In this document: positions 52 to 51,841 of the stretch, piece after piece | Position numbering within the stretch: the stretch's first letter is position 1 | Layout of the letters: every line of letters starts with the position of its first letter | NCBI GenBank assembly: GCA_964579145.1 | Contig: CAZOGB010000002.1 | Coordinates: 592 to 64,591 of the forward strand | DNA length: 64,000 nt | Source: an uncultured bacterium | GTDB lineage: Bacteria; Armatimonadota; HRBIN16 | Reading direction: 5' to 3' | Made by a program: the position numbers and the translations under genes | Notes under the pieces: generated by a model | The model's database searches: none | What the model saw: only the letters and a program-made list of their open reading frames with translations | What the model was told of the DNA's origin: nothing

Positions 52-2262
52 TTATCGCGCTCCCACGATGCCGACGTCGATGTACTGCCCGCCGGTGGTC
101 TGGCGACAGTGTACCGCAATTGTGTTCTCGCCCTGTTTCAGCGACGCCTTCAGGGCATCAGTGATGATATGCTCCGCGTAGCCGGTGAGAAAGCCTTTGA
201 AGCTCGCTACCAGCCTGCCGTTGACGTAGACCTCCGCGTCCTCATCGTGGTGCACCACCAGCGCGAGGTGTTTAAAATCCACCTCCGACAGATGGAACCG
301 CTTGCGAAGCCAGATGTCGGAGGTGTTCCACACGGTTCGCACCACTGCTCCGGGCGTGCCCGGCGTGCCGAAGCCGCCTTCCCCCTCCGACCATGCGCTG
401 TCGTCATAGTCGGGGCGTGTCCAGCCGTCTCCTGGCTTCTGCAGGGTATAGCGCCACCGCTGTGCGCTGTGCTGTGAGGTAGCCAGTAGTTCCACCCATT
501 GGATGTCCAGCACGCGCGGCGGCTGAGTTTCGTACGCGGCGGGGCGTGCATTGATCGCCTTCAGCAGAGGCGGGTCGTACTTGGGCTGGCGGTCGTAGAA
601 GTACACGCCGTTCTGTTCCTGCTCCACGTCGGTCAGCTGGGTATAGCAGAAGCCGAACATGTTGGGGTTATCCAGCAGAACATCGGTCAGCTCCTTGTAG
701 CGTTTGAGAAACTCCTGCAGGTCGGTTTCGCCATAGCCCCAGCCCTCGCCGGTGGAATGTCCGGTGCGAATGCGCATACCGCCGTACTCGCTCACGAAAT
801 AGGGTTGACCACGATAGGCACTGCGCGGGTCGCCGGGCACGTTATTCCACGCACGGGTTCCCATCTGCTTGAAGGGCTCATACCGTTGCGCAAAGACCTG
901 GGGGTCCTGCGTGTAGTCGTGGCAGTCGTACACGTCTGTTTCGGGTACGAAATGCACGTATCCGCTGGCGTCCAGCCAGGGGCGCGAAGGGTCCATGCTT
1001 TGTGTGGTCGCCAGCAGAATCTGCGCCAGCGCGGAACCCTTACTGCTGTCGGTTTCATTCAACGGACACCAGCCGATGATGCTGGGGTGATTGCGGTCAC
1101 GCTCCAGCACCTCGCGCCATTCCTGTACGGCGTAAGTAACCGCCTCGTAGTCATTCACGTTCAACCCCCACGAGGGGTACTCGCCCCACACGATGTACCC
1201 CAGTTTATCCGCCCAGTAAAGGAAACGTGGCTCGAACACCTTCTGGTGCAAACGCGCCCCGTTAAAGCCAGCCGCCATGGACAGCTCAATGTCCCGGCGC
1301 AGGGCTTCATCGGAGGGTGCGGTGTAGATACCGTCGGGATAGAATCCCTGGTCCAGAACCAGGCGCTGGAAAACCGGTTTACCGTTAATCAGGAAGCGGT
1401 TGCCTTCAATGCTAATCTTGCGCAGACCGAAATAGCTTTTCACGACGTCCACCGGCTTGCCGTTACGCTCTACCGTTATCGTCAGGTCGTACAGGAACGG
1501 CTTACCCGGATGCCACAGTTTGACGGTGGACAGATTGAGCACGCCAATGGTGTTGCGCCAGTTCGCTGGCACCACCTCTTCGCCAACCAGCCTGCCGCCG
1601 GCATATGCTTGCAGACGCACCTTGGTACCCTTCTGTGTGCCATCCACCCAGCCCTGAAAGATTACCCGTCCACCATCGGGGTCGGGGGTCAGCTGGAAGC
1701 TTTTGAGGTAGGTATCCCCCGTCGCTTCCAGCCACACGGTCTGCCAGATGCCTGTGGTGCGGGTGTACACACAGCCGTAAGAATGTCGCTCGTGGCTCTG
1801 TTTTCCTGTTGCCTGCTTGCCGGAGCGCGTTTCATCGATCACATGCACCACCAGTTCGTTGTCGCCCGGGCGCACATGCCGGGTGATGTCAAAACGGAAG
1901 GGCGTATAGCCGCCGCGGTGCTCGCCCAGGAACGTGCCGTTGAGCCATACGCGCGCGTGCCAGTCCACCGCCCCAAAGTGCAGGAACAGGCGTTTCCCTT
2001 TCATGCTGGCGGGCACTCGAAAGTGCCGGCGATACCATACGTGCGTCATGAAGTCGGTGTTGCCGATGCCGGAGAGTTCGCTTTCCGGTGCGAAAGGCAC
2101 CAGAATGCGCTGAGAAAAGCTTTTGCCCGATATCCAGCCCTGTTGTTCGCCGATGCCTTCGTGGTCTATCTCGAACTCCCACTCCCCGTTCAGGTTGAGC
2201 CACAGCTCGCGCTGAAAATCGGGACGCGGATGTTCAGGTCGCGGAATGTTTGTTTGCGCCAT
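52..2262 (-). CDS. glycoside hydrolase family 2 (beta-mannosidase/beta-galactosidase-like), cytoplasmic
   Basis: 754-aa ORF 52..2316 with a GH2-like sugar-binding plus TIM-barrel organisation; start trimmed to the ATG at 2262, preceded by AGGAG with 8-nt spacing; no signal peptide. Confidence 0.7.
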   Translation of the reverse strand: MAQTNIPRPEHPRPDFQRELWLNLNGEWEFEIDHEGIGEQQGWISGKSFSQRILVPFAPESELSGIGNTDFMTHVWYRRHFRVPASMKGKRLFLHFGAVDWHARVWLNGTFLGEHRGGYTPFRFDITRHVRPGDNELVVHVIDETRSGKQATGKQSHERHSYGCVYTRTTGIWQTVWLEATGDTYLKSFQLTPDPDGGRVIFQGWVDGTQKGTKVRLQAYAGGRLVGEEVVPANWRNTIGVLNLSTVKLWHPGKPFLYDLTITVERNGKPVDVVKSYFGLRKISIEGNRFLINGKPVFQRLVLDQGFYPDGIYTAPSDEALRRDIELSMAAGFNGARLHQKVFEPRFLYWADKLGYIVWGEYPSWGLNVNDYEAVTYAVQEWREVLERDRNHPSIIGWCPLNETDSSKGSALAQILLATTQSMDPSRPWLDASGYVHFVPETDVYDCHDYTQDPQVFAQRYEPFKQMGTRAWNNVPGDPRSAYRGQPYFVSEYGGMRIRTGHSTGEGWGYGETDLQEFLKRYKELTDVLLDNPNMFGFCYTQLTDVEQEQNGVYFYDRQPKYDPPLLKAINARPAAYETQPPRVLDIQWVELLATSQHSAQRWRYTLQKPGDGWTRPDYDDSAWSEGEGGFGTPGTPGAVVRTVWNTSDIWLRKRFHLSEVDFKHLALVVHHDEDAEVYVNGRLVASFKGFLTGYAEHIITDALKASLKQGENTIAVHCRQTTGGQYIDVGIVGAR

Positions 2263-2457
2263 CGTGTTTACTCCTACCGTCAGCAAAAGGATCATAACCG
2301 GTACTCTGAAAGCCACTGTGTGACCCTCCGTGTGCCGTTCCGTTGTTAGTTATAATACGGGAGAGGTGTGCTCTATTCCTGTCGACATGAAGAGGAGTAT
2401 CCAACGGGAAATGGAAATATAAGACAACTCTGCGGAAAACCGGAGGGTTCTGGCGCC

Positions 2458-3006
2458 ATGCAAGACGAGATTAAAGAGGCGGTTCGCGATGTGGTAGGCA
2501 TCCTGGATGATTTGAGCAAGGAGATACGCCACCGGGCAGCGGCGCGCGTGGAGGCTCGTGACGACGGCACGGCATCTACGCTGATGGAGTTGGCTCGGCG
2601 GGTAGAGCAGTTTTCCGACAGTATCAGAAGGTGGAAACCAGCACAACAAAAAGACAGCATCAATCCACATCGCCCGGCGAAGGCGATGAAAGGGAAACTG
2701 CCTCGTGGTGTGCGCACCCCAGAGAAGGCTTTTTACCTCCCCATTCTGCAAGCGCTGGTACAACTGGGAGGTGCGGCGCCCGTGCGAAAGGTGCTGAGTC
2801 TGGTGGGCGAGCAGATGAAGGACCAGCTTCGCGACGTTGACTGGCAACCTCTCCAGAAAGACCCGAAAACTCCGCGCTGGGAAAATACGGCGATGTGGGC
2901 ACGCTATAAACTGATACAGCAAGGTCTTCTGCGCAACAACTCCCCGAAAGGCATCTGGGAAATTACTGAGGCGGGGAGACGGTATTTGGAAGAGCATAGT
3001 CAATGA
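2458..3006 (+). CDS. hypothetical protein with a helical N-terminus and a C-terminal Mrr_N-like winged-helix domain
   Basis: C-terminus (LPILQALVQLGG...RWENTAMWARYKLIQQGLL...KGIWEITEAGRRYLEE) matches the restriction-system Mrr N-terminal wHTH pattern; start set to the ATG at 2458 after GGAGGG; its stop overlaps the next gene's start as ATGA (3003-3006). Confidence 0.5.
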   Translation: MQDEIKEAVRDVVGILDDLSKEIRHRAAARVEARDDGTASTLMELARRVEQFSDSIRRWKPAQQKDSINPHRPAKAMKGKLPRGVRTPEKAFYLPILQALVQLGGAAPVRKVLSLVGEQMKDQLRDVDWQPLQKDPKTPRWENTAMWARYKLIQQGLLRNNSPKGIWEITEAGRRYLEEHSQ

Positions 3007-3290
3007 AAGACTATCATAACAACCTGTTCTACAGCGAAGAGGACGTTGGCTATATTGCAGATATTCCTGACCTGCCGGGCTGTTCCGCTTTCGGCGAAAC
3101 CCCGGAAGAGGCTCTGCGCGAGGTGCTTATCGCGAAGCAAGCGTGGCTGGAATCTGCACGCGCGGAAGGCGAGCCAATACCCGCCGCCCCGTTACCGACC
3201 TGTGGTGTATCAGCAGGTGGATTGAACGGCTATCAATCTGCCTCTATCCCATGCCAACGTCGAACCGGTACTCTCCCGAACCGATGTTGA
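3003..3290 (+). CDS. HicB-like antitoxin family protein (UPF0150)
   Basis: N-terminal 60 aa (MKDYHNNLFYSEEDVGYIADIPDLPGCSAFGETPEEALREVLIAKQAWLE) is the classic HicB/UPF0150 signature; the ORF runs to 3290 and overlaps the convergent GH78 3' end, so the true C-terminus is uncertain. Confidence 0.55.
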   Translation: MKDYHNNLFYSEEDVGYIADIPDLPGCSAFGETPEEALREVLIAKQAWLESARAEGEPIPAAPLPTCGVSAGGLNGYQSASIPCQRRTGTLPNRC

Positions 3291-5862
3291 CCACCACAAA
3301 TCCGCGCTCGGCGCCGCGAACCTGTAATCCTTCTGCCTCGTCTAAAGGCTTGCCGCTTTCGGTGACAGCGCCCACATCCACCGCAGGCAGATAGACGGTC
3401 GCGCTGGTGTTGGCGGGAACGGTCACCTTCCAGTGCAGTCGTCCCCCTTCCCTGCACCACTCGCTGAGGATCATTCCGCGTACGGAACGGTAGCTTGCCC
3501 TTGCCCATTCTATGCCCGGCACGAGATGGGGCTTCAGCACGAAATGCCTGAAACCGGGCGTGTTTGCGCAGGGACGTATGCCCGCGATACCGTAGAAAAA
3601 CCACGCATCGAACCCTCCCTGCATGGGATGATTGCAGGAGCGCGGGCCTTCCTGCTGTTCAATCTCAGGCTCGCTCCACCATTCCCACAGCGTGGTTGCA
3701 CCTAACGAGAACAGATATCCGATGCTGGGATAGTCGGTTTGGTGCAGGATAGTCATTGCCACATCCCCATGCCCGTACTCACTCAACGCCCAGAACAGAT
3801 GACGCAGACCCAGAATGCCTGTAGAATGATGCCCGCGATGCCGTTCCATTACATCCCGCGCAAGGCTGTCCGCAACTGCCTGCTCCATCCCCTGCGGCAC
3901 CAGCCCCCATGCCAGCGCGAGCACATCCGCCGTTTGACTGCCATAAGTGCGCTCTTCGGCGTTGAAGAAGCGACGATTGAACGCCTCACGTATCTGCACC
4001 GCAAGCTGTTCAAACGCGCTGGCATCTTCCGTTTTGCCCAGCACCTGCGCCACGCGCTGCATCATGCAGGCATCCAGATAGAAAACCGCGGTGGATGTGA
4101 TGGGAATAGGCGTATTGCCGGGCACCGAGCCGGGCGCACACCAGTCCCCCAGCCCCGCCGACACAATCATGTCCTGCGCGCCGTCCCGCAGGTGTTCCAC
4201 CCACCGTTTCATGGTGTCGTAGTGCTTTTCCAGCACGGCGGTATCGCCGTAGTACACGTAGAGATAGTAGGGTATCTGTACGATAGCCGTTCCCCAGTCT
4301 GGTGACGCCTCACCGATTTTGCGCTTACCGGGCGCCACAAAGGTGGGCAGTCCCTTCTCGGTTAGCGAGGTTTCTATGTCCTCCAGATACTTGCTCCAGA
4401 AAGGCGCCATTTCAAAATTATAGATGGTCATCTCCGCCGAGACGTGCGCGTCGCCCAGCCAGCCACATCGCTCGCGGTGTGGGCAGTCGGTGGGCACGCT
4501 GTGCAGGTTACTCACCTCTGTCCACAGAGCAGTGCGATGGATGCGGTTCAGCATTTCATCAGAGCACTCAAATGTGCCCGCTGGCTGAACAGCGGTGTGC
4601 ACCACCACTCCCTCCAGCATGTCCAGCGTGGGCGTGCCCGGATAGCCTGTCATCTCCACATAGCGGAAGCCGTGATAGGTAAAGCGCGGTTCCCAGACTT
4701 CTACGCCCCTGCCTTTACAGGTGTAACGGTCGGTCTGCACCACATTGGTCGCGAAAACGCCGGTGCTGGCGGGGTCGATGCCGCCATCGGGATGCAGTTC
4801 CTCGGCGAAACGCAGGGTGATGGTCGTGCCTTCGGGAGCCTCCACCTTCAGCCTTGCCCAGCCGGCGAAGTTCTGTCCCATGTCATATACCCACACGCCC
4901 GGCTGTACCTGCCACAGGCTGATGGGCTGAAGTGTTTTTATCCGTTGGATGGGAGGCATCAGCTGGCTTTGCAGTCGCCTGGTCGGGGACGGAATCATCC
5001 GTACGGGCTGACACGCCGAATCGTCAAACGAAGCGGTGCTCCAGCCGGGCACTTCGAGCCGCGCGTCGTACTCTTCGCCAGCGTAGACATTGTTTGTGAG
5101 CACCGGTCCGGGGAAAGTTTTCCACGATCCGTCGGAGCAGATGAGTTCGGTTGTGCCGTCCTCGTACTCCAGAACCATCTGGAAGAGAGCGCACGGAAGC
5201 CCATACGACATTCCACCCCACACCACAGCCTGATGGAACCACCCGTTGCCCAGCATGATGCCCACCGCGTTCTCGCCCGGCGTCAGCAGGTGCGTGATGT
5301 TGTATACCACGTACAGCGTGCGCTGTTCGTAGTCTGTCTGAGCGGGGTCGAGCACATGGTCGCCCACGTGCACGCCGTTCACCCAGAGCTCGTAATAACC
5401 CAGCCCGCATACCAGCGCACGTGCCCGCCTTACCGGTGCACTCACCAGAAACGCTTTGCGGAGCAGAGGAGCCGGTTCCGCCTGCGGCGCCGAAATCCAC
5501 TGCGCCTTCCACTCCTCGGGGTGCAGGATGCCCATCTCCCACCAGGAAATCTCGCTCCACTCGGATGGGTTCCCCAGAGCATCCCACACCTGCACCTTCC
5601 AGTAACATCGCTGAAGCGACTGGAGGGGCTTGCCTGCGTAGGAAATGTGGGTGGTCTGGTCGGTTTCCACCCTGCCCGTGTCCCACAGGTCTCCCTCATC
5701 GCGGGCGAGCAGGTCGGGACTGCTGGCGACCAGAATGCGGTAAGCGGTTTGCCTCTGTGCGCGTTCGCGCGACCACAGCGTCCAGCTCAGGCGCGGCTGT
5801 GGCACATCCACCCCCATCGGGCGCGGCAGATATTCACAGCGAAGGTCCATGGGTATCATCAT
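3244..5862 (-). CDS. alpha-L-rhamnosidase (GH78)
   Basis: About 870 aa with the GH78 N-terminal beta-sandwich and six-hairpin catalytic domain signature; start trimmed to the ATGATG at 5862-5857, 14 nt after the upstream stop. Confidence 0.8.
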   Translation of the reverse strand: MMIPMDLRCEYLPRPMGVDVPQPRLSWTLWSRERAQRQTAYRILVASSPDLLARDEGDLWDTGRVETDQTTHISYAGKPLQSLQRCYWKVQVWDALGNPSEWSEISWWEMGILHPEEWKAQWISAPQAEPAPLLRKAFLVSAPVRRARALVCGLGYYELWVNGVHVGDHVLDPAQTDYEQRTLYVVYNITHLLTPGENAVGIMLGNGWFHQAVVWGGMSYGLPCALFQMVLEYEDGTTELICSDGSWKTFPGPVLTNNVYAGEEYDARLEVPGWSTASFDDSACQPVRMIPSPTRRLQSQLMPPIQRIKTLQPISLWQVQPGVWVYDMGQNFAGWARLKVEAPEGTTITLRFAEELHPDGGIDPASTGVFATNVVQTDRYTCKGRGVEVWEPRFTYHGFRYVEMTGYPGTPTLDMLEGVVVHTAVQPAGTFECSDEMLNRIHRTALWTEVSNLHSVPTDCPHRERCGWLGDAHVSAEMTIYNFEMAPFWSKYLEDIETSLTEKGLPTFVAPGKRKIGEASPDWGTAIVQIPYYLYVYYGDTAVLEKHYDTMKRWVEHLRDGAQDMIVSAGLGDWCAPGSVPGNTPIPITSTAVFYLDACMMQRVAQVLGKTEDASAFEQLAVQIREAFNRRFFNAEERTYGSQTADVLALAWGLVPQGMEQAVADSLARDVMERHRGHHSTGILGLRHLFWALSEYGHGDVAMTILHQTDYPSIGYLFSLGATTLWEWWSEPEIEQQEGPRSCNHPMQGGFDAWFFYGIAGIRPCANTPGFRHFVLKPHLVPGIEWARASYRSVRGMILSEWCREGGRLHWKVTVPANTSATVYLPAVDVGAVTESGKPLDEAEGLQVRGAERGFVVVNIGSGEYRFDVGMG

Positions 5863-33942: not shown

Positions 33943-35148
33943 GTGCTGGAGGAAGTGTTTATGCCACAGTCGGAAGCGGTTTCAGAAAAGCGGTTTATTC
34001 TGCCCGCCGGGCAGTTTCAGCGGTTGTTTGACGCCCTGCATCAGGGCGGCTATCAGACCATTGCCCCTACCCTGTTGGACGACGCCATCGTGTACGAGAC
34101 GGTGGATTCGGTGAGTGACCTGCCCCTCGGTCTGACCGACGAACAGCGTGCGGGCGCATACAGAGTGAAACGCAACCCCGAGGGGCGAACTTTCTTTCGT
34201 TATGCAGTGGGTCCGCGTTCATGGAAGCACTATCTCTATCCACCCCGGCAGAGGCTCTGGCGGGCACAACGCAACGGCGATGGAGGCTTCCATGTGCTCG
34301 CCGAGCGGGAGGACGTGCCTCGCTATGCGTTCATCGGCGTACGCGCCTGCGAGCTCGCTGCCATCCAGATACAGGACAGGGTGTTTCTGAGCGAGCAGTA
34401 TCAGGACGAGCACTACCAGCGCAGGCGGGAGAACGCCCTGTTGATAGCCCTCAACTGCACCGCCCCGTCGGGAGTTTGCTTCTGCACCTCCCTGGGAACG
34501 GGACCGCGCGCCAAAGACGGCTTTGACCTTGCCCTCACCGAGGTCTTCGGCAATAATGAGCACTTCTTTCTGGTGGAGGTGGGAACGGAGAGCGGCGCTT
34601 CGCTGGTAGAAGATCTTGGCATGCCTCCAGCCACAGAACAACAGTGTCAGATGGCTGAGGCTCTGATAGCAAACGCCGAGCAACGGATACTGAAGCGTCT
34701 GGACATCTCCGACCTGAAGGAATTGCTCTACCGCAATCTGGACAGTCCACACTGGGAAGAGGTGGCGAGGCGATGCCTTACTTGTTCGAACTGCACGATG
34801 GTCTGCCCTACCTGTTTCTGCCACACGGTGGAAGATGTGACGAATTTGCAGGGCACGGTGGCCGAGCGATGGCGTCAGTGGGATTCCTGTTTCCACGTTG
34901 ACTTCTCGTATATTCACGGCAGCGCAGTGCGCATTTCAGAGGCATCGCGTTATCGGCAGTGGATTACCCACAAACTGGCATCCTGGCAGGACCAGTTCGG
35001 CGTGATAGGGTGTGTGGGATGTGGACGGTGCATCACCTGGTGCCCGGTGGGCATAGATATTACCGAGGAGGTGCGCGCCTTGCGACGTCGCGAGGGGAGC
35101 AGAGCCGCTCCAGCATCACCAAAGGAGGAGAACCATGCGAACGCTTGA
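33943..35148 (+). CDS. hydB: group 3b [NiFe]-hydrogenase beta subunit (HydB-like; 4Fe-4S dicluster protein)
   Basis: Two CxxCxxCxxxCP ferredoxin motifs ([12 protein letters not shown]; [12 protein letters not shown]) plus an N-terminal sulfhydrogenase-beta-like domain; first gene of the hyd operon; the start is either the GTG at 33943 or the ATG at 33961. Confidence 0.65.
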
Positions 35149-35596
35149 GACCATCCTGGCAGAACATCCCTTCTTTGAGGGGTTGCCCGACAAGCACCTG
35201 AAAGTCATCGTGGGCTGTGCCTCCAATGTGAGCTTCGAGGAAGGCGAGACCATCTTCCGCGAGGGCGAAGAGGCGAATCGCTTCTACCTCATCCGACAGG
35301 GGCGGGTGGCGCTGCAGGTGTACGCAGCGGGCATTGGCACGATAACCATTCAGACGCTGGACGCAGGAGACATTTTGGGGTGGTCGTGGCTGGTGCCTCC
35401 CTATCGCTGGCACTTCGACGCGCGAGCGGTGGAACCGGTGCGAGCCATCGCACTGGACGGTGAGTGCTTGCGCCGCAAATGCGAGGAGGACCACGATCTG
35501 GGATATGAACTGCTGAAGCGGTTCGCGGAGATAATCACCCAGCGGCTTCAGGCTACTCGCCTGCAGTTACTGGATGTGTACGGTCTCAGAAGGTAG
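35135..35596 (+). CDS. cyclic-nucleotide-binding-domain protein (CAP/Crp effector domain only, no HTH)
   Basis: [48 protein letters not shown] is the cNMP-binding beta-roll signature; 153 aa; overlaps the hydB stop by 14 nt. Confidence 0.6.
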
Positions 35597-37229: not shown

Positions 37230-38505
37230 CATCCGGGTAGATTATCTGGCAAGAGTGGAGGGCGAAGGCTCTCTGCATGTTCGCTTCAGGGGCGGAAAAC
37301 TGGAGGAAGTGCATTTTAAGATTTTCGAGCCTCCTCGCTTCTTCGAGGCGTTTTTGCGCGGGCGAAGCTATCATGAAGCACCGGACATCACCGCCCGAAT
37401 CTGCGGCATCTGCCCGGTGGCCTACCAGATGAGCGCAGCGCACGCGATGGAAGATGCCTTTGGCGTGAAAGTGGAAGGGCCCATTCGCGACCTGCGCCGA
37501 CTGATATACTGCGGCGAATGGATAGAGAGCCACGTGCTTCACGTCGCCCTGCTTCACGCCCCGGACTTTCTGGGCTATGAAGACGCCATCCAGATGGCGC
37601 GAGAGCATCCGCAAATCGTGCAGACCGCCTTGCAGCTGAAAAAGGTGGGCAACGACCTGGTGAACCTCATCGGCGGGCGCGAGATACATCCGATAAACGT
37701 GAAAGTGGGAGGCTTCTACAGGGTTCCCCGTCGGCGCGACCTGGACGCGATTGAAGAGCGTTTAAAGTGGGCGCGCGACGCTTCGGTTCAGCTGGTTAAG
37801 TGGGCGGCGAGCCTGCCCATTCCTGACTTCGAGCAGGATTACGAGTTTGTGGCTCTGCAACACCCCGCAGAGTATCCGATGAACGAAGGCAGGCTCGTCT
37901 CGAATAAAGGGTTGGACATCGCCATAGATGAGTTCGAGACTCACATCGTCGAAGAGCATGTGCCCTACTCCAACGCTCTGCACGCGCGTATCGCCAGACG
38001 TGGAGCCTATCTGGTGGGACCGCTGGCGCGGTTCAACCTCAATTTCGCGCGACTATCGCCGCTGGCGCAGGAGGCTGCCAGAGAGGTTGGCGTCGTTCCT
38101 CCCTGCCGTAACCCGTTCCAGAGCATCGTGGTTCGCGCCATCGAAACCCTCTATGCGTGCGACGAGGCTCTGCGTATCATTGAACACTACACCATGCCGA
38201 ACAAGCCGGCTATAGACATACGTCCTTGCGCGGCGACCGGGCATGGATGCACTGAAGCCCCGCGCGGCATCCTCTACCATCGCTATCGCGTGGATGAATA
38301 CGGCACCATTCTGGACGCCCGAATCGTGCCGCCTACTGCCCAGAACCAGAAAACCATTGAGGCGGACCTGCGGAGCCTGATTGAGGCGAATCCTGACCTG
38401 CCGCTGGAACAGCTACAGTGGCGATGCGAGCAGGCGATACGCAACTACGATCCGTGTATCTCCTGCGCCACACACTTCCTGAAAATCAACATACAGAGGG
38501 AATAG
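37207..38505 (+). CDS. hydA: [NiFe]-hydrogenase large (alpha) subunit, group 3b
   Basis: N-terminal [10 protein letters not shown] and C-terminal DPCISCATH Ni-binding CxxC pairs; 432 aa. Confidence 0.85.
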
Positions 38506-38598
38506 ACCGCGCTGGCGTGCCTGTTCATTTGACCGTTAATTCACTCACTGCTGTCTTTCCATCCCCTTTCTTCCCTCTCTGATCCCATCGTTTATCTA

Positions 38599-38628
38599 TT
38601 GAAATATTTCGCATTGCTATGCTATAAT
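38599..38628 (+). promoter_or_regulatory. sigma70-type promoter (TTGAAA-18-TATAAT) in an AT-rich patch
   Basis: TTGAAA at 38599-604 and TATAAT at 38623-628; it drives a roughly 480-nt transcript segment ahead of the ATG at 39106. Confidence 0.45.
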
Positions 38629-39105
38629 TGGGGTGACTTTTGACATAGGGCACAAATGGCTCCATGAACCGCTGGCTTATCTGGCTGATACTTTGCATAC
38701 AGGGCATTTACGACCTGTCGTTAACGGGGCTGGCGCGGATGACCGCAACAGCTGGTCAGGACTCGTTACAACGGCTGCACGCGGTGTACTGCCACTGCCA
38801 ACACTGCTCGGACATCCACAGCTGCTGTTGCGTGCCCCACAAGCAGGTCATCACCGAAGCAGCCGTGCGCCAGTGTGACCCGTCTCCAGCAGCCAAAGTA
38901 GCCAATACGTGGGCATTTCGGCTGGTAAGCCAGCTGCCGACTGAAGTGCCGCTGTGTATCTCGTCTGAAGAGGCTGGTGGCTACGTACCCAGCTATCACG
39001 ATACCTTTGTGCTACCTCCTGAACCTCCTCCGCGTGGTGTCTGAGAAGACTCGTGTCTGCCAACTTTTCTCGGACATTACAAAACCAGCAAGAGGAGGTC
39101 AGGAA

Positions 39106-39846
39106 ATGCTTCGCAAGGGTTTTACGCTCATTGAACTTCTGGTGGTTATCGCGATTATCGCGATACTTGCCGCCATCCTGTTGCCTGTGTTCTCACAGGC
39201 TCGTGAGAAGGCGCGCGCTGCCGCCTGCCTGTCCAACTGCCGGCAGATGGGTATCGCGGTGCAACTCTACGTTCAGGACTACGACGAGACGATGCCGACA
39301 GTGAGGATGATGTGGCCTGGTATGCCTCAACCGCCTGTCAGCTGGCTCGAGCAGCTGCAGCCCTATGTGCGGACGCCTCTGCTACAACGCTGTCCCTCAG
39401 ACAGCAGCCCGGCGTGGCAGGCAAACCCGCCTCGCGTTTCTTCTTACGGGCTGAACGCCTACTTCGATCCCTTCCATGCCCCGTACGGCGACCACCTGGC
39501 GCCTCGTCCGCTGGCGCTTGCGTCCGTTGCTCGACCCGCCCAGTGTATCTACATCGCCGAACTGGCAGAGGTCAACCGCAAAAACGGAATGCCCATTAAA
39601 GCGGACCACTTTATGCCCATGTACTGGGGTAATCCGCCGCGGGTGATGGATATGATGATGAACGCCATGATGTGGGATGCCAATGCGCAGATACCCACCA
39701 CACTCGCCATCGCGCGCCACCAAGGCGGGGCAAACTATGTCTTTGTGGACGGGCATGCGAAGTGGCATCTGTTCGGGCAAACCTGGCAACAGAGAACAGG
39801 TGAAGTACCTCTCGTTGACTGGTACGACCCGATGCGCGCCGAATAG
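39106..39846 (+). CDS. DUF1559 (H-x9-DG) protein with a prepilin-type N-terminal cleavage/methylation domain
   Basis: [49 protein letters not shown] is the type-IV-pilin-like N-terminus typical of DUF1559; start at the ATG at 39106, 7 nt after AGGAGG; the upstream part of the track ORF is removed. Confidence 0.75.
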
Positions 39847-46219: not shown

Positions 46220-46684
46220 ATGCACAGGACACTTCTTATCGGGATTGGCAACGTTTACCGCAGAGACGACGGCGTGGGCATCGTGGCGGTGCGTCGGGCG
46301 CGCTCCCTGCTCCCCCCGTCGGTGGAGGTGTTGGAGTGGACGGGCGACCTCATGACGCTTCTGGAGATATGGCAGGGTTCCCGCTGTGTTGTGGTGGATG
46401 CGCTTCGTTCAGGAGGCACGTCAGGACAGATACTCCGCATGGAGGCGCACCGTGAACCGTTGCCTGTGGAAGGGCGCTTCTTCTGCACGCACTCGATTGG
46501 GCTGGAGGAGGTTATTGCTCTGGCGCATGTGCTGAACAAACTGCCGGTGGAGCTGATACTGTACGGCGTGGAGGGTAGCGACTTCGGCGAAGGCGAAGGG
46601 TTGTCGCCAGAGGTCGAAAAGGCAACGGATGATGTGGTACGATATATCCTGCAGGACGTTATGAAGGACAGGGCAGATGCATGA
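46220..46684 (+). CDS. hycI: hydrogenase maturation endopeptidase (HycI/HybD family)
   Basis: LLIGIGNVYRRDDGVG...HSIG motifs of the hydrogenase C-terminal maturation proteases; start at the ATG at 46220 after GAGGAGGA. Confidence 0.75.
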   Translation: MHRTLLIGIGNVYRRDDGVGIVAVRRARSLLPPSVEVLEWTGDLMTLLEIWQGSRCVVVDALRSGGTSGQILRMEAHREPLPVEGRFFCTHSIGLEEVIALAHVLNKLPVELILYGVEGSDFGEGEGLSPEVEKATDDVVRYILQDVMKDRADA

Positions 46685-47036
46685 GTTCTCGATAGCCGAG
46701 GCAATCGTGCGCACCAGTGAAGAGGTGCTGAGAGCGAACGGCGGCGGCAAGGCGGAAAAGGTGCATTTGCGCATCGGCGAGCTGCGTCAGGTGGTTCCCG
46801 ACGCGCTGACCTTTGCCTTTGACATCCTGAAAGAAGACACCCTGCTGGCGGATGCGTCGCTGGAGTGGGAGACCGCACCTGCGCAGGTGCGCTGCAGGTC
46901 CTGCGGGACGGAATATCATCCGAGAGATGTTTTCTGGGAGTGTCCTTCATGCGGCGCGATAGGCGCGGAGGTGGTGGCAGGCGAGGAGCTGGAGATACTG
47001 GCCATTACTCTGGCAGGAGGTTCAGATGGAGATTAA
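46677..47036 (+). CDS. hypA: hydrogenase nickel-incorporation protein HypA
   Basis: MHEFSIAEAIV N-terminus and the CRSCG...CPSCG zinc site. Confidence 0.85.
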   Translation: MHEFSIAEAIVRTSEEVLRANGGGKAEKVHLRIGELRQVVPDALTFAFDILKEDTLLADASLEWETAPAQVRCRSCGTEYHPRDVFWECPSCGAIGAEVVAGEELEILAITLAGGSDGD

Positions 47037-47688
47037 GGTTGTGCGGCGAATAATGGAGGCGAACGAACAGCACGCGGAGGTGGTGCGCCAGCGGCTGCGA
47101 GAGGCAGGCGTGGTGGCACTAAACCTCATCAGCGCACCCGGCTCAGGCAAAACGTCGTTAATCGAGTGCGCTATTCGCGAGCTGAAGGGCAAGGTGAACA
47201 TAGGCGTTATTGAAGGCGACCCCGACACCACCCGCGACGCCGAACGCATCGCCCGGCTGGATGTACCCGTCGTGCAGATTAATACCGAGGGCGGCTGTCA
47301 CCTGGAGGCGACGATGGTTCTGCGCGCGCTGGATGAAATAGACCTGAACGCCCTGCAGTTGCTATTTATCGAGAACGTGGGCAATCTGGTATGTCCGGTA
47401 GTGTTTGACCTGGGCGAAACGCATCGGGTGGCGGTGGTCAGCGCCGCGGAGGGTCACGATAAGCCCGCTAAATACCCTGCCCTGTTCCGCACCGCGCAGG
47501 TGACTGTGTTAAACAAAGTGGACCTGATACCCTATCTGGACTTTGACGAGTCGCAGTTTACCGCCGACGTACGCCGGCTGAACCCCGATATGCCGATACT
47601 GCGCGTGTCCTGTCGCACCGGCGAGGGAGTGGTGGAATGGGTCCGTTGGCTGGAGGGCTTGTTGAATAAAGAGGCTGTCACGCAGTAG
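47026..47688 (+). CDS. hypB: hydrogenase nickel-incorporation GTPase HypB
   Basis: P-loop SAPGSGKTSLIE, ENVGNLVCP and NKVDL G-motifs. Confidence 0.85.
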   Translation: MEIKVVRRIMEANEQHAEVVRQRLREAGVVALNLISAPGSGKTSLIECAIRELKGKVNIGVIEGDPDTTRDAERIARLDVPVVQINTEGGCHLEATMVLRALDEIDLNALQLLFIENVGNLVCPVVFDLGETHRVAVVSAAEGHDKPAKYPALFRTAQVTVLNKVDLIPYLDFDESQFTADVRRLNPDMPILRVSCRTGEGVVEWVRWLEGLLNKEAVTQ

Positions 47689-47708
47689 GTCTTACGAGAC
47701 AGCACCTG

Positions 47709-49979
47709 TTGAGCATGTCACATTCGGTCCAGCGCGTTCGTCTGGTTATTCGAGGGGCGGTACAGGGCGTGGGGTTTCGCCCGTTTGTGTTCCGCCTGGC
47801 GACCGAGCTCGACTTGCGGGGGTGGGTGCTGAACTCGGCGCAGGGCGTCTTCATCGAGGTGGAGGGCGAACCGGCTCTGCTCCAGCAGTTCGTGAAACGT
47901 CTCTATCACGAGTTGCCCCCACGCGCTTTCATCCAGAGCATGGAGCAGTCGGTTCTTGACCCCGCTGGCTACACCGCTTTCGAAATCCGTCACAGCGAAG
48001 AGACTGGCGAAAAGAGCGCACTCATCCTGCCCGACATCGCCACCTGCGCCGATTGCCTGCGCGAAATCTTCGACCCCGCCAACCGCCGCTACCGCTATCC
48101 CTTCACCAACTGCACAAACTGCGGTCCGCGCTACAGCATCATTGAGTCCCTGCCCTACGACCGCCCGAACACCACCATGAAGGCGTTCACCATGTGCGCG
48201 AAGTGCCGGGAGGAGTACGAGAACCCGCTGGACCGGCGATTCCACGCTCAACCGAACGCCTGCCCAGAGTGCGGTCCACGTCTGAATCTCTGGGACGAGC
48301 AAGGCGGTGTGCTGGCACAGTATGACGAGGCTCTGCGCAGGGCGGCGGATGCCATCCGCGAGGGGCGTATTGTGGGAGTAAAGGGGCTTGGGGGCTTCCA
48401 TTTGATAGTAGACGCCCGCAATGAGCAGGCTGTTCGTCGGCTCCGTGAGCGCAAGCGACGGGAGGAGAAGCCATTTGCGCTGATGTATCCCTCTCTGCAG
48501 ATGGTGCGGGCACACTGCTGGGTAGACGAAGCGGAAGAACGCGTGCTCACCTCGCCCGAATCGCCGATTGTCCTCCTGCGCCGCAAGGGGGATGCCGACA
48601 TTGTTCCTTCGGTTGCGCCCGTCAACCCCTATCTGGGCGTGATGCTCCCCTACACTCCCCTGCACCACCTCCTGCTTGCCGAACTGGGCTTTCCGGTTGT
48701 TGCCACCAGCGGGAACCTGTCGGATGAGCCTATCTGCACGGACGAATACGAGGCACTCCAGCGTCTCGCCGGCATCGCCGACCTGTTTCTGGTGCACAAC
48801 CGACCGATTGCCCGTCATGTGGACGACTCGGTGGTGCGCGTGCTAATGGGGCGTGAAATGGTGTTGCGGCGGGCGCGCGGCTATGCGCCTCTGCCTGTTC
48901 TGGTAAAGGAGCCTCTGCCTCCCCTGCTGGCCGTGGGTGCGCACCTGAAAAACACCGTCGCGCTGAGCGTGGGCAGGCAGGTTTTTATCAGCCAGCATAT
49001 CGGCGACCTGGAGACCCCACAGGCGCTGGAGGCGTTCCGGCGCGTGATTGCCGACGTGCGTGCCCTTTGGGAGCACCAGCCGCAGGCGGTAGCGTGTGAC
49101 ATGCACCCCGATTACCTCTCCACGCAGTCTGCGCACCGCATGGGGCTTCCCCTCGTGAGCGTTCAGCATCACTACGCGCACGTGCTGGCGTGCATGGCGG
49201 AGAACGAGGTCGCACCTCCCGTGCTGGGCGTCTCGTGGGATGGCACGGGCTACGGCGCCGACGGCACGGTGTGGGGCGGCGAGTTCCTGCTGGTGACCGA
49301 AACAGGCTTCGAGCGGGTGGCGCACCTGCGACCATTCCGCCTGCCCGGTGGTGACCGCGCCCCCAAAGAGCCTCGCCGCTCCGCGCTGGGAGTGCTGTAT
49401 GAAATGCTGGGCGAGCAGGCGTTTGACCTGCTGGGCAACCTGTTCACCCCTCGCGAGCGGCATCTTCTGGCGCAGATGCTCAGGCAGGGCGTGAACGCTC
49501 CCATCACCACCAGCGCGGGCAGGCTGTTTGACGCGGTGGCATCGCTGGTCATCGGGCGGCAGGTGGTGAACTTCGAAGGGCAGGCGGCGATGGAGCTGGA
49601 GTTCCTCGCCCATTCCGCACAGGGTGACGACTCGTATCCCTTCAGGTTGTCAGAGGGAACTCCGCGCGTGCTGGACTGGTCACCGACGGTGGAGGCAATC
49701 TTGCAGGATGTCCAGCAGGGTGCGGAGCCTTCATGGATTGCCCTGCGCTTTCACAACGCCCTGGTGGAGATGGTGGTGGCGGTGGCGAAGGCGGTCGGTG
49801 TGGAGCGGATTGCGCTCAGCGGGGGCTGTTTCCAGAACGCCTATCTGACCGAGCGGGCGGTGCGTCGCCTCACCGAAGAGGGCTTTCGCATGTACTGGCA
49901 TCAGCGCGTTCCTCCCAACGACGGCGGCATCGCGCTAGGACAGTTGGTGGGGGCAGGACACCTGCTGCCTAAAGGTTGA
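47709..49979 (+). CDS. hypF: [NiFe]-hydrogenase maturation carbamoyltransferase HypF
   Basis: Acylphosphatase domain, two CxxC Zn fingers, a YrdC-like domain and a Kae1-like domain; 756 aa. Confidence 0.9.
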   Translation: MSMSHSVQRVRLVIRGAVQGVGFRPFVFRLATELDLRGWVLNSAQGVFIEVEGEPALLQQFVKRLYHELPPRAFIQSMEQSVLDPAGYTAFEIRHSEETGEKSALILPDIATCADCLREIFDPANRRYRYPFTNCTNCGPRYSIIESLPYDRPNTTMKAFTMCAKCREEYENPLDRRFHAQPNACPECGPRLNLWDEQGGVLAQYDEALRRAADAIREGRIVGVKGLGGFHLIVDARNEQAVRRLRERKRREEKPFALMYPSLQMVRAHCWVDEAEERVLTSPESPIVLLRRKGDADIVPSVAPVNPYLGVMLPYTPLHHLLLAELGFPVVATSGNLSDEPICTDEYEALQRLAGIADLFLVHNRPIARHVDDSVVRVLMGREMVLRRARGYAPLPVLVKEPLPPLLAVGAHLKNTVALSVGRQVFISQHIGDLETPQALEAFRRVIADVRALWEHQPQAVACDMHPDYLSTQSAHRMGLPLVSVQHHYAHVLACMAENEVAPPVLGVSWDGTGYGADGTVWGGEFLLVTETGFERVAHLRPFRLPGGDRAPKEPRRSALGVLYEMLGEQAFDLLGNLFTPRERHLLAQMLRQGVNAPITTSAGRLFDAVASLVIGRQVVNFEGQAAMELEFLAHSAQGDDSYPFRLSEGTPRVLDWSPTVEAILQDVQQGAEPSWIALRFHNALVEMVVAVAKAVGVERIALSGGCFQNAYLTERAVRRLTEEGFRMYWHQRVPPNDGGIALGQLVGAGHLLPKG

Positions 49980-50005
49980 CTTTTCTTCCCCCTTCGTGGT
50001 AAAAT
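49976..50005 (+). promoter_or_regulatory. sigma70 promoter with an extended -10 (TTGACT-18-TGgTAAAAT)
   Basis: The -35 overlaps the hypF stop codon; a hairpin (CCCCA-TGTT-TGGGG) lies in the 5'UTR, then AAGGAGG and the GTG at 50113. Confidence 0.45.
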
Positions 50006-50112
50006 GCACGAGCGTTACAACGCCCGTAAAAAGGCGGGAGTAACTTGACAATCTGCGTCCCGACGGCACCGAAAAAGCCCCATGTTTGGGGTGCCCGAAA
50101 GGAGGTACCGAC

Positions 50113-50925
50113 GTGCACTTGCGTTACGCGCACGGCAGAACGCTTTCTGTCGCTCTGCTGATAGCTGCAACCCTGTGTGCGTTCGTGACCGCAGACGCAG
50201 GTCGCCGGTTCTCAGTGCGCCTGCGCGAAGGTGGCACGGTGCGTACATTGGACACACAAGCCGCAACCGTCGCAGAACTCTTGCGCGAAGCGGAGATACG
50301 CCTGGAGAAGTTGGACCGCGTCCAACCGCCTCCGGCAACACCTCTTGCCGATGGGATGGAAGTGGTGGTCACCCGGGTGCGCCAGCAGGTGGTTACCGAA
50401 GAGCAGACCATTCCGGCGCCCGTCAAGCGTTTCGCCGACCCCGCACTGCGGGCAGGGGTGAAACGGGTGGTGCAGGAAGGGCAGGACGGGAAAAAGCGCA
50501 TCCAGTGGCTGGTCACCATCAAAGACGGGCAGGAGGTGTCCCGAAAGGTGTTAGCGTCCAAAGTTATCTCGCAACCCAAGCCTCGCATTGAGCGGTACGG
50601 GGCGGGCGGCTCGCTGCCCGCGCGAGGTTTCTTTAGCGGACGGCGTGTGCTGACTATGATCGCTACAGGCTACGCACCTTATGTCTGTGGCGGCAGCCGC
50701 TCGGGACGCACCGCGACCGGGATTAAGGCGGGTTACGGAACCGTTGCCGTGGACCCCCGCTATATCCCGCTTGGCACGCGCCTGTACATCGAAGGATATG
50801 GCTATGCGATTGCTGCAGATACCGGTCGAGCGATTAAAGGCAATCGCATTGACCTTGGGCACGACACTTATCAACAAGCGAAGCGGGTCGGTATGCGCAA
50901 GGTCAAAGTGTATATATTGGACTAA
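50113..50925 (+). CDS. secreted DUF348/G5/3D-domain cell-wall-binding protein (YabE/Rpf-like)
   Basis: Signal/TM at the N-terminus; C-terminal 3D-domain motifs (TATGYAPYVCGGSRSGRTATG...AVDPRYIPLGTRLYIEGYG...IDL); GTG start with RBS. Confidence 0.6.
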   Translation: MHLRYAHGRTLSVALLIAATLCAFVTADAGRRFSVRLREGGTVRTLDTQAATVAELLREAEIRLEKLDRVQPPPATPLADGMEVVVTRVRQQVVTEEQTIPAPVKRFADPALRAGVKRVVQEGQDGKKRIQWLVTIKDGQEVSRKVLASKVISQPKPRIERYGAGGSLPARGFFSGRRVLTMIATGYAPYVCGGSRSGRTATGIKAGYGTVAVDPRYIPLGTRLYIEGYGYAIAADTGRAIKGNRIDLGHDTYQQAKRVGMRKVKVYILD

Positions 50926-50983
50926 CACCTGAACGTGGGCGGAGCCTCTGCGCTCCGCCTTTTCCATCCATGGGGGACGGGAC

Positions 50984-51841
50984 GTGAAACTGACCTCGCC
51001 ATCGCAGATACGGTTGCTGTTACTGCAGTTCGGGCTGTATCCCGATAAACGCAAGGGACAGCACTTCCTCGGCGATTATAACGTCCTGCAAAAGATTCTG
51101 CATGCCGCAGACCTCTCCCCCGACGAGGGCGTACTGGAAATCGGAAGCGGTATCGGCACGCTGACCCGTGCGCTGGCGGAACGAGCCAGACAGGTGTTGA
51201 CCTTTGAAATCGACGCCAAGCTCCTGCCCGTCGTCCAGCACAACCTGCAGGGCTACGCGAACGTTCGGCTGGTGCATGGCGACTTTCTGCGCGAAAACCT
51301 GCCCCAGCTGATACAGGAGACCTTTGGCGAATCTCCGTTCAAGGTGGTGGCGAACATTCCCTACGGCATCACCAGCCCCATACTGGACCGCCTGTTCGGC
51401 GTTGCCAGCGGATGGCGTCTCGCCGTGCTGATGATTCAATATGAGGTTGCGCTGCGGCTTGTTGCCCAGCCGGGCACGCCTGAATACAGCTCCATCACCG
51501 TCTTTGCGCAGTACCACTCCCGCGTGGAAATCGTCTCGCGCGTTTCGCATACCGTTTTCTACCCCCCGCCGGAGGTAGACAGCGCTATCGTGCGCTTCAC
51601 TCCCCTGCCCAACCGGCTGCCTCCGGAGGAGGAACGCCATCTGTTCCGCGTGGTGCGTGCAGCCTTCGCCCAGCGGCGCAAGACCCTGCTGAACACGCTG
51701 AGCGGAGGGCTGAACCTGCCGCGTCAACAGGTGGAGCGAACTCTGCGGGAGGTGGACGTAGACCCTCAGCGCCGCGGCGAGACGCTGTCGCTGGAAGAGT
51801 TTATCACTCTGGCTCACGCGCTATATCAACCGAAGGGATAA
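50984..51841 (+). CDS. rsmA: 16S rRNA (adenine1518-N6/adenine1519-N6)-dimethyltransferase
   Basis: KsgA/Dim1 family (KGQHFL; LEIGSGIGTLT; NIPYGITSPIL). Confidence 0.85.
   Translation: MKLTSPSQIRLLLLQFGLYPDKRKGQHFLGDYNVLQKILHAADLSPDEGVLEIGSGIGTLTRALAERARQVLTFEIDAKLLPVVQHNLQGYANVRLVHGDFLRENLPQLIQETFGESPFKVVANIPYGITSPILDRLFGVASGWRLAVLMIQYEVALRLVAQPGTPEYSSITVFAQYHSRVEIVSRVSHTVFYPPPEVDSAIVRFTPLPNRLPPEEERHLFRVVRAAFAQRRKTLLNTLSGGLNLPRQQVERTLREVDVDPQRRGETLSLEEFITLAHALYQPKG

Follow-up and report, generated by a model that had tools for sequence, protein, structure and literature searches.

A conserved small Cys/His protein gene and a prepilin-type DUF1559 gene form a two-gene cassette with probable translational coupling by Shine-Dalgarno masking in Armatimonadota-like genomes

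The closest described counterparts of the locus analysed here are CutF, encoded ahead of cutO in Rhodobacter capsulatus, and CopL and CruR, CutF-like DUF2946 proteins encoded by upstream open reading frames (ORFs); all have fewer than 150 amino acids (aa) and are encoded directly upstream of their target on the same mRNA, as is predicted for our locus (PMC9973294; bioRxiv 10.1101/2025.02.05.636593; PMC8456105). In the CutF paradigm, a protein of fewer than 150 aa carries a Sec signal, a Cys/His motif and a diproline (PP) within its last 15 residues, and a stem-loop shields the next gene's Shine-Dalgarno (SD) sequence; 45 aa lie between the Cu motif and the proline motif, a distance that has been discussed as the length of the ribosome tunnel plus the translocon (PMC9973294; bioRxiv 10.1101/2025.02.05.636593). 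In this study, we analysed a 600-nucleotide (nt) gap within a 64,000-nt stretch of DNA from an uncultured Armatimonadota bacterium (GenBank assembly GCA_964579145.1, contig CAZOGB010000002.1, positions 592 to 64,591 of the forward strand), hereafter called the window. The gap lies between a NiFe-hydrogenase large-subunit (hydA-like) gene that ends at position 38505 (TAG at 38503-38505) and a prepilin-type DUF1559 gene that starts at 39106, boundaries that had been given in a preliminary description of the window and were borne out. The gap was found to hold a conserved small gene that forms a cassette with the DUF1559 gene. The two genes are probably coupled in translation through masking of the SD sequence of the second, with the small protein probably being an exported nascent-chain sensor of the CutF kind, unrelated in sequence to DUF2946.

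Comparison with homologues identifies the ORF at 38664-39044, 126 codons on the forward (+) strand like all features of the cassette, as a real, conserved protein-coding gene. NCBI and Logan assemblies already list the ORF among their genes. In a word-index protein search the query matched nothing but itself, and searches of Pfam, NCBIfam and PDB sequences with the small protein matched nothing. An exhaustive phmmer search of 1.8 billion representatives retrieved homologues of 99-156 aa at 38-52% identity with E values down to 1e-33, a profile search yielded 14 clusters, all 'hypothetical' and with an empty Pfam field (14/14), and a metagenome scan with alignment A2 gave nine loci. Homologues were available from 13 distinct loci at 25-52% identity, and the frame is open over 119-156 codons in every one of them (119-138 aa in 12 loci and 156 aa in locus L083). 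Nucleotide identity at codon positions 1/2/3 was 0.56/0.62/0.45 over 12 loci, and 0.51/0.58/0.32 between the window and L087; the lowest identity at third positions is a protein-coding signature. The ratio of non-synonymous to synonymous substitution rates (dN/dS) was 0.2-0.6 in five of six correctly aligned close pairs, which indicates moderate constraint, although these values are weak given the few substitutions. Two other close pairs were uninformative (1.49 on 11 substitutions, and zero synonymous changes), and three pairs misaligned by an indel were left out. The preliminary description had called the composition of the ORF odd and had taken it for the only ORF of the region. Neither point held: the GC content at codon positions 1/2/3 is 0.61/0.50/0.64, high-low-high like the neighbouring genes, and the other frames contain three more ORFs, of 81, 77 and 70 aa. 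Low divergence was considered as a sign of nucleotide-level constraint and rejected; the window and its nearest relative, L082, show 11 differences in 600 nt, and over the 8.3-kb alignment, in which spans hold 3-25 differences per 300 nt, the cassette (5) is no outlier. A conserved small gene of this kind is easily missed or dismissed, and neither Pfam nor NCBIfam has a model for it. At least two public assemblies, L106 (GCA_002898555.1, bacterium HR15; 3009-3368) and L108 (2945-3358), leave it uncalled, with 'empty' gaps of 700-800 nt ahead of the DUF1559 gene, as in the window.

Conservation in the small protein is confined to a signal-like N-terminus, a Cys/His cluster and a C-terminal motif. 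The N-terminus forms a signal-peptide-like hydrophobic helix (residues about 3-25; 38670-38738): a basic start and a hydrophobic run of 12-15 residues are present in 13/13 sequences, and L106 has a clear AxA-like site (NAFA followed by P). An AlphaFold2 model from a shallow alignment (predicted local distance difference test score, pLDDT, 55) was confident only for the N-terminal helix, residues 2-28. The Cys/His cluster, H39-Y42-C43-x-C45-xx-C48-x5-C54-C55-C56-x-P58...C71, is encoded at 38778-38876. In alignments A1 and A2, H39, Y42, C43, C45, C48, C54, C56, P58 and C71 are invariant (numbering of the window protein). The core H-x3-CxCxxC-x5-C[C/G]C-...-C[D/E] recurs in the 13 loci with H39 replaced in L107 and L108, and the pattern CxCxxC-x4-5-C[C/G]C...C[D/E] is found in 13/13. 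A zinc-binding anti-sigma motif (Hx3Cx2C) was considered by eye for the cluster and rejected, since the residues are spaced differently and the transmembrane segment is at the wrong place for it, at the N-terminus. The C-terminus of the window protein reads PPEPPPR (39015-39035), and the motif common to the homologues is [D/E]xPPR, most often in the form HPPR. PPR occurs in the 13 loci, as PPC in L094, and PPR or PPC stands 1-7 residues ahead of the stop in 12/13; in L083, the ORF runs 30 codons further. Between the cluster and the C-terminus lies a variable spacer. Its sequence is poorly conserved, yet its length is fixed: in 13/13 loci, 50-52 residues separate the last Cys from PP and 65-68 residues separate CCC from PP, whereas the N-terminal part varies by 19 residues in length. 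The ORF of L083 (5001-5471), the closest cross-species homologue, passes PPPR and continues through the SD sequence and start of the DUF1559 gene with an overlap of 25 nt; the extension either occurs naturally, as a read-on variant of the coupling, or comes from a frameshift in the assembly.

The second gene of the cassette lies at 39106..39846 and encodes 246 aa. Its matches above cut-off to PF07963 (3.3e-8), PF07596 (6.1e-8), TIGR02532 (2.9e-9) and TIGR04294 (6.1e-7) place it as a bona fide prepilin-like member of the DUF1559 / H-X9-DG family (PF07596, TIGR04294), and we propose it as the regulated downstream cistron. In 13/13 loci, an N_methyl+DUF1559 gene of 233-252 aa comes next after the small ORF, in the same orientation and at a distance of -25 to 142 nt (61 nt in the window), and every homologue that could be placed on a contig adjoins such a gene downstream. 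A search from the DUF1559 side recovered three more distant orthologues with an upstream ORF of like build, namely L106 (bacterium HR15), L107 and L108 (a metagenome-assembled genome of the Chthonomonadaceae). L108 also has an ordinary DUF1559 paralogue, which lacks an ORF of this kind upstream. Where orthologues are named, they belong to Armatimonadota, Fimbriimonadales, bacterium HR15, Chthonomonadaceae and Abditibacteriales, which suggests an Armatimonadota host for the window as well. By this comparison, the small ORF and one orthologous DUF1559 group are a conserved two-gene cassette in Armatimonadota-like genomes.

Within the DUF1559 family, the partner belongs to a single orthologous group that is short (~245 aa), rich in Met and unusually conserved. 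Its identity is 66-87% between cassettes in which the small ORFs share 25-49%. The protein is rich in Met and His. Met makes up 6.5% of its residues against a background of 1.9% (16/246, clustered at 63-73 and 162-189), with a conserved stretch DHFMPMYWG[ND]PPRV.D.MMN. In alignment A4, M68, H168, M170 and M172 are kept in 60-67 of 76 orthologues and D167 is invariant; these Met and His residues may form a Cu(I)-type site. The AlphaFold2 model of the partner (pLDDT 93) matched nothing beyond the pilin helix in a Foldseek search against the PDB, the globular domain being unmatched. Two independent Logan assemblies, L001 and L082, both break 118 nt past the stop of the small ORF, equivalent to about 39162 in the window and within the nearly invariant stretch that encodes the prepilin N-terminus; the breaks are probably caused by DUF1559 paralogues acting as a repeat.

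The conserved RNA element of the cassette is predicted to be a helix that sequesters the SD sequence of the DUF1559 gene, a prediction supported by conservation and covariation. In the window, an anti-SD arm, UCCUGAACCUCCUC (39017..39030, codons P118-P123 of the small gene), pairs with the SD arm, GAGGAGGUCAGGA (39092-39104), in the minimum free energy (MFE) and ensemble structures, and the 61-nt intergenic spacer (39045..39105), which ends in the SD arm, is the loop of this long-range helix. The duplex UCCUGAACCUCCUC:GAGGAGGUCAGGA has a free energy of -30.3 kcal/mol, compared with -17.3 +/- 2.4 for shuffled upstream sequence. The SD sequence itself, noted earlier as AGGAGG, is strong; it reads GAGGAGG and forms an anti-SD duplex of -12.7 kcal/mol. 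The probability that the GGAGG is unpaired was 0.00 both at 37 C and at 70 C, whereas the 41 other GGAGG ribosome-binding sites of the window have a median of 0.24 (three at <=0.02). Over the loci, this probability was <=0.01 in 10/13, comprising seven main-group types including the window, L104, L102 and L108 (0.006), and 0.19-0.23 in L100, L106 and L107.

The position of the helix follows the end of the small ORF. In the 13 loci, the partner of the SD sequence always lies within the last ~10 codons, and most loci use the PP codons for it. L102 and L100 use the L-S-stop codons and have changed both arms, which read CUCUCCU:AGGAGAG; L107 uses the S-L-Q-V codons just past PPPR, and L106 uses A-L-stop. 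PPR is kept in L100, L106 and L107 though it is not the anti-SD there, the anti-SD following just after it, which suggests that the peptide motif and the RNA arm are conserved separately but always adjacent. When an alignment was anchored on the SD sequence and its partner, 73% of cells were paired, compared with 65 +/- 2 in shuffles (0/500) and 44-49% with the partner slid, and two pairs flanking the helix core occur as CG, UA, AU and GU types. Codon usage in the motif is skewed. CCT accounts for 17% of Pro codons in the genes of the window, yet the four CCT codons of the small ORF are all found in the anti-SD. Over the 13 loci, motif Pro codons are CCT in 18/31 cases versus 73/428 elsewhere in the same operons (Fisher p = 1e-6), a bias that supports selection at the RNA level. 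L094 and L096 have Cys (TGT) where the others have the Arg (CGT) of PPR, and a different tail, EHPPCVLA before the stop; the helix is kept there and extended to 12 bp by a G-U pair and UGUGUG:CACACG.

With gene, partner and helix in hand, the cassette can be set against CutF. The likeness lies in the putative Sec-type N-terminus, the Cys/His cluster in the putative exported part, the proline repeat in the last 15 residues, the predicted helix that shields the next SD sequence and the short intergenic distance. The distance between metal motif and stall motif is also roughly constant, at 45 aa in CutF and 50-52 aa in the cassette. The cluster, however, is CxCxxC-x5-CCC...C rather than CxxxC, and the ORF itself contains the 5' arm of the helix, at or beside the PP codons, whereas the CutF stem-loop is intergenic. 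The targets of CutF-like proteins are a multicopper oxidase, an RND pump, a TonB transporter or a chaperone, and that of the cassette is a prepilin-type DUF1559 protein. The hosts differ as well; those of CutF-like proteins are Pseudomonadota and Bacteroidota, and that of the cassette is an Armatimonadota bacterium.

A promoter for this region, TTGAAA-18-TATAAT at 38599-38628, had been noted in the preliminary description, and a consensus scan agreed with it (11/12 consensus matches and a TG extended -10). The -35 hexamer TTGAAA lies at 38599-38604 and the -10 hexamer TATAAT at 38623-38628, separated by an 18-nt spacer with TG, within the conserved block CTATTGAAATATTTCGCATTGCTATGCTATAAT of the predicted cassette promoter (38596..38628). 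A scan of 3 kb found two promoter-like sites, this one included, versus 1.4 expected. The real support comes from conservation: the block TTGAAANNNTTMGNNNNNCTATG occurs once per locus in 18/18 main-group cassette loci, at a constant distance to the small ORF, and in 0/81 other loci. The sigma-70-type hexamers and the extended -10 of this predicted promoter, whose start site is likewise predicted, are conserved across loci. Remote members have other near-consensus promoters (TTGACT-17-TATACT, TTGATT-18-TATAAT and TTGACA-18-TATTCT) 30-50 nt upstream. Judged by these sequences, the region has its own promoter, and the promoter travels with the cassette. The promoter stands in a low-GC patch after hydA, which was also confirmed (GC 0.41-0.42 at 38550-38699 and about 0.6 beyond); GC is back to about 0.6 from 38650 on.

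The inferred start at about 38635 leaves a leader of about 29 nt within an untranslated region (38629..38663) that has no SD sequence, and a GTGAAnnCGGGAAC-like part of the leader is kept in the main group. The lack of a ribosome-binding site, raised earlier against the ORF, is real: the 20 nt upstream pair with the 16S anti-SD at -3.5 kcal/mol. The same holds in 13/13 loci (-1.1 to -5.8 kcal/mol, compared with -8.7 to -13.0 for the DUF1559 genes). Because it is conserved in all of them, the absence of an SD sequence appears to be a conserved design feature and not an argument against translation. A three-codon mini-ORF, ATGGCTCCATGA (ATG GCT CCA TGA, 38656-38667), whose stop overlaps the ATG of the small gene (ATGA), was set aside as an element; it is absent from L083 and is probably due to chance.

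We propose the following mechanism. The promoter would drive a bicistronic mRNA that starts ~30 nt ahead of the SD-less 126-codon gene, as suggested by the conserved promoter and by the lack of a terminator between the two genes. The small gene would encode the Sec-signal-like N-terminus, the Cys/His cluster (CxCxxC-x5-CCC...C) and the C-terminal [D/E]xPPR, while the PP codons (CCU CCU) and their neighbours would serve as the 5' arm, and the GAGGAGG SD sequence of the DUF1559 gene as the 3' arm, of the helix. In untranslated mRNA, the SD sequence is predicted to be closed, with conservation and covariation in support. Ribosomes would initiate inefficiently on the SD-less small gene, and those that reached the PP codons would occupy the anti-SD and free the SD sequence, so that DUF1559 output would follow translation of the small gene, in keeping with established translational coupling. 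Translation of polyproline depends on elongation factor P (EF-P), and slow peptide-bond formation at PP(P) may prolong the open state. At such a pause, the Cys/His cluster would be just out of the translocon, and a thiophilic metal (Cu, Ni) or oxidation could tune the pause and hence the output of the Met-rich DUF1559 protein. The 50-52 residues from the last Cys to PP approximate the length of the ribosome tunnel plus the translocon. Export, the pause at PPP and the sensing of a ligand, as well as the nature of that ligand, are inferred. The idea that metal binding or oxidation at the cluster tunes the pause is drawn from the analogy with CutF and is speculative and somewhat less likely than not. 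The most complete form of the proposal would have Armatimonadota evolve a CutF-type sensor independently, with a metal- or redox-dependent pause at PPR, on proline codons that double as the anti-SD, switching on a Met-rich DUF1559 pseudopilin; we offer this tentatively, as a possibility that we would not yet favour.

Two other groups of systems resemble the cassette. SecM-secA, MifM-yidC2, VemP-secDF2 and the RAPP-type arrest peptides combine a localisation signal, a spacer of more than 30 aa, a C-terminal proline motif and a stem that holds the next SD sequence and would be opened by a stalled ribosome (PMC10987492, PMC7897499), and the cassette is built alike. Of the four criteria for Sec/YidC monitoring substrates (PMC10987492), ii-iv describe the small protein, which has a hydrophobic N-terminus, [D/E]xPPR and more than 90 aa between them; criterion i, a position upstream of secA, secDF or yidC, does not, as the downstream gene is N_methyl + DUF1559 in 13/13 loci. 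Unlike monitoring substrates, the cassette protein ends in [D/E]xPPR rather than RAPP or RAGP, and it has a strongly conserved Cys/His cluster in mid-protein, which they lack. Classical coupling by SD sequestration, known from the coat-replicase genes of phages MS2 and Qbeta and from atpHA and rpmI-rplT of E. coli, forms the second group. As predicted for the cassette, an upstream coding sequence pairs with the downstream ribosome-binding site and translation of the first cistron opens the second. The iraD leader ORF may be compared as well (PMC5574718). In contrast to the classical cases, the first cistron of the cassette is SD-less in every homologue and carries signal, Cys/His and PP motifs at fixed spacing, which suggests a coupling that is regulated and not merely stoichiometric.

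Other explanations of the region were weighed against this one. In the preliminary description, the ~480 nt ahead of the DUF1559 gene were read as a structured leader without coding function, such as a riboswitch or attenuator, or as a non-coding RNA in its own right, the ORF being spurious. The region does fold more stably than expected (z = -2.9 for the 470-nt stretch against dinucleotide shuffles, compared with -0.4 for an equal-length control within hydA), it is enriched in GCTG/CAGC, its ORF has no SD sequence, and the window and L082 differ in the ORF by four non-synonymous and two synonymous changes, all of which would suit a non-coding element. On the other hand, protein homologues reach down to 25% identity with the Cys/His residues invariant, the frame is open in 13/13 loci, third positions are the least conserved, and homologues lack the GCTG/CAGC enrichment. 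Rfam, named earlier as a check, gave no relevant match at E<=10 in the region; Rfam 15 returned only four chance-level eukaryotic hits over 38000-39600 (E 1.2-6.6), and nothing reached the gathering score in the whole window. What survives of that reading is a promoter of its own and an RNA structure that bears on DUF1559 expression through an SD sequence predicted to be fully sequestered. What falls is the non-coding nature of the 480 nt, for given the small gene only about 29 nt and 61 nt are untranslated, and we consider a non-coding RNA extremely improbable. The helix could instead be an RNA thermometer or an mRNA-stability element acting independently of small-gene translation, as masking of the SD sequence is the usual form of thermometers and the relatives come from Armatimonadota-like genomes, some of them in assemblies from hot springs by name. 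The helices, however, are long and GC-rich, masking is predicted to hold at 70 C in 7/7 main-group loci tested and at 85 C in most, and the 5' arm always lies in the last codons of a translated ORF, for which a thermometer would have no need; this explanation is very unlikely.

A simpler alternative, and a serious rival, is an ordinary two-gene operon in which the small protein is a stable membrane or periplasmic partner of the DUF1559 protein (an accessory factor, a chaperone or a metal-binding subunit), coupled to it at a fixed ratio with neither stalling nor sensing. The strict conservation of the gene pair and the invariant Cys/His core suit such a partner, and SD masking commonly couples the translation of genes without regulating it. 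At the N-terminus, the main group strongly conserves QGIYDLSLGGW, the helix keeping QG[IV]YDL[ST]LGGW, as would be expected of a stable membrane protein that has a function of its own rather than of a signal peptide that is discarded. The C-terminal motif in its commonest form, HPPR, is not among the known strong EF-P-dependent stall motifs. Against a stable partner, the small protein evolves much faster than the DUF1559 protein (25-49% vs 66-87% identity), and AlphaFold2 gives it no folded domain. The points that reach beyond a simple two-gene operon are the conservation restricted to motifs, the spacer that keeps a length of 50-52 aa from last Cys to PP with little conservation of sequence, and the PPR that is kept even where it is not the anti-SD; the conserved absence of an SD sequence on the first cistron also speaks for regulation. 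We regard stoichiometric coupling to a stable partner as somewhat doubtful, though well worth keeping in mind. Besides QGIYDLSLGGW and HPPR, further observations weigh against coupling with a CutF-like sensor. All of the evidence is computational, with predictions throughout. The call of a signal peptide comes only from inspection by eye and the AlphaFold2 helix, and the segment may instead be a signal anchor; dN/dS of close pairs is only moderately below 1 (0.2-0.6), and the nearest relative, L082, differs by four non-synonymous and two synonymous changes. No sequence relationship to DUF2946 was detected, the family being unmatched when nine small-protein members were run by hmmscan against Pfam-A at E<=10. 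Masking in the three loci at 0.19-0.23 is no better than the background median. The flanking pairs covary on the anchored alignment, but its anchoring on the SD sequence and the MFE partner favours the core pairs, and an unanchored run with MAFFT and RNAalifold left the SD sequences unaligned and recovered only an adjacent CGUG:CACG helix. The 13 loci are phylogenetically related, so that the Fisher and shuffle statistics overstate independence. Finally, the link to 'metal homeostasis' is drawn from the composition of the DUF1559 protein and the neighbouring genes only.

DUF1559 proteins number thousands in Planctomycetota, Verrucomicrobiota and Armatimonadota and, to our knowledge, have no known function. 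If the proposed sensor is real, sensing by exported nascent chains, as in CutF, SecM and MifM, would enter a phylum, a protein family and a class of target gene that are all new to it, and the design would be an unusually economical one, with the CCU CCU codons providing stall motif and anti-SD in the same nucleotides. It would also offer a first way into the regulation and function of the very large DUF1559/H-X9-DG family, by way of Cu/Ni or thiol stress at the envelope, and a Met-rich DUF1559 group under such control near hydrogenase/hyp, redoxin and HMA genes would make envelope metal or thiol stress a testable hypothesis. If plain translational coupling alone holds, the cassette is an ordinary though neat operon feature.

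The wider neighbourhood of the cassette differs between loci. In the window and L083, the cassette follows hydA; L083 continues with hycI-hypA-hypB-hypF, whose counterparts in the window are found at 46220-49991, past an inserted block of ABC-transporter genes. L104 also has NiFe hydrogenase/hyp neighbours, and there the cassette stands between a TusA/DsrE/rhodanese cluster with a CsoR-family regulator and a DUF348-G5-3D gene. L100 and L102 encode a double redoxin and a periplasmic HMA protein (LHCEGC) after the cassette, and in L087 an ArsR-family gene comes directly after it. The genome of L003, whose hydA is a relative at 85% identity, has no cassette after hydA and carries it elsewhere (L085). 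Together, the NiFe hydrogenase/hyp genes of the window, L083 and L104, the redoxin and HMA genes, and the CsoR and ArsR regulators are hints that the surroundings of the cassette may be concerned with metal or thiol chemistry.

The CsoR-family regulator of L104 lies upstream of the cassette, beyond a divergent five-gene sulfur-trafficking cluster. The whole cluster (967-5785, - strand) comprises the CsoR/RcnR-family regulator, two Sulf_transp genes, a DsrE-like gene, TusA and a rhodanese/beta-lactamase-fold fusion; it is located between hypF and the cassette and resembles a persulfide or sulfur-trafficking system. In the window, the inserted block consists of ABC-2 permease and ATPase genes (39880 to ~46000, - strand) and parts the cassette from hycI-hypA-hypB-hypF, a DUF348/G5/3D gene and ksgA (46220-51823, +). 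In L003, permeases directly follow hydA, and in L083, hycI directly follows the cassette. These differing gene orders in the window, L083 and L003 suggest that the hydrogenase cluster has been rearranged repeatedly.

The richness in GCTG/CAGC between the promoter and the DUF1559 gene, pointed out in the preliminary description, was reproduced. The stretch at 38629-39105 has 19 such words in 477 nt, the highest value of the window (8.0 +/- 2.9 per tile), and includes three CAGCTG. It was dropped as a functional feature, as homologues have 1.2-3.2 per 100 nt compared with 4.7 in the window region; the excess probably reflects the local codon content (TGC, CAG, CTG, AGC, GCT). Within the NiFe hydrogenase operon, we also observed a gene for a 153-aa protein that consists of a cyclic nucleotide monophosphate (cNMP)-binding domain alone (window 35135-35596, +; L082 4311-4772; L083 1445-1906). 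It sits between a Fer4_22 subunit gene, with which it overlaps by 14 nt, and an NAD_binding/DHODB_Fe-S subunit gene, and it is kept in the relatives; the protein may be a built-in regulator of the hydrogenase.

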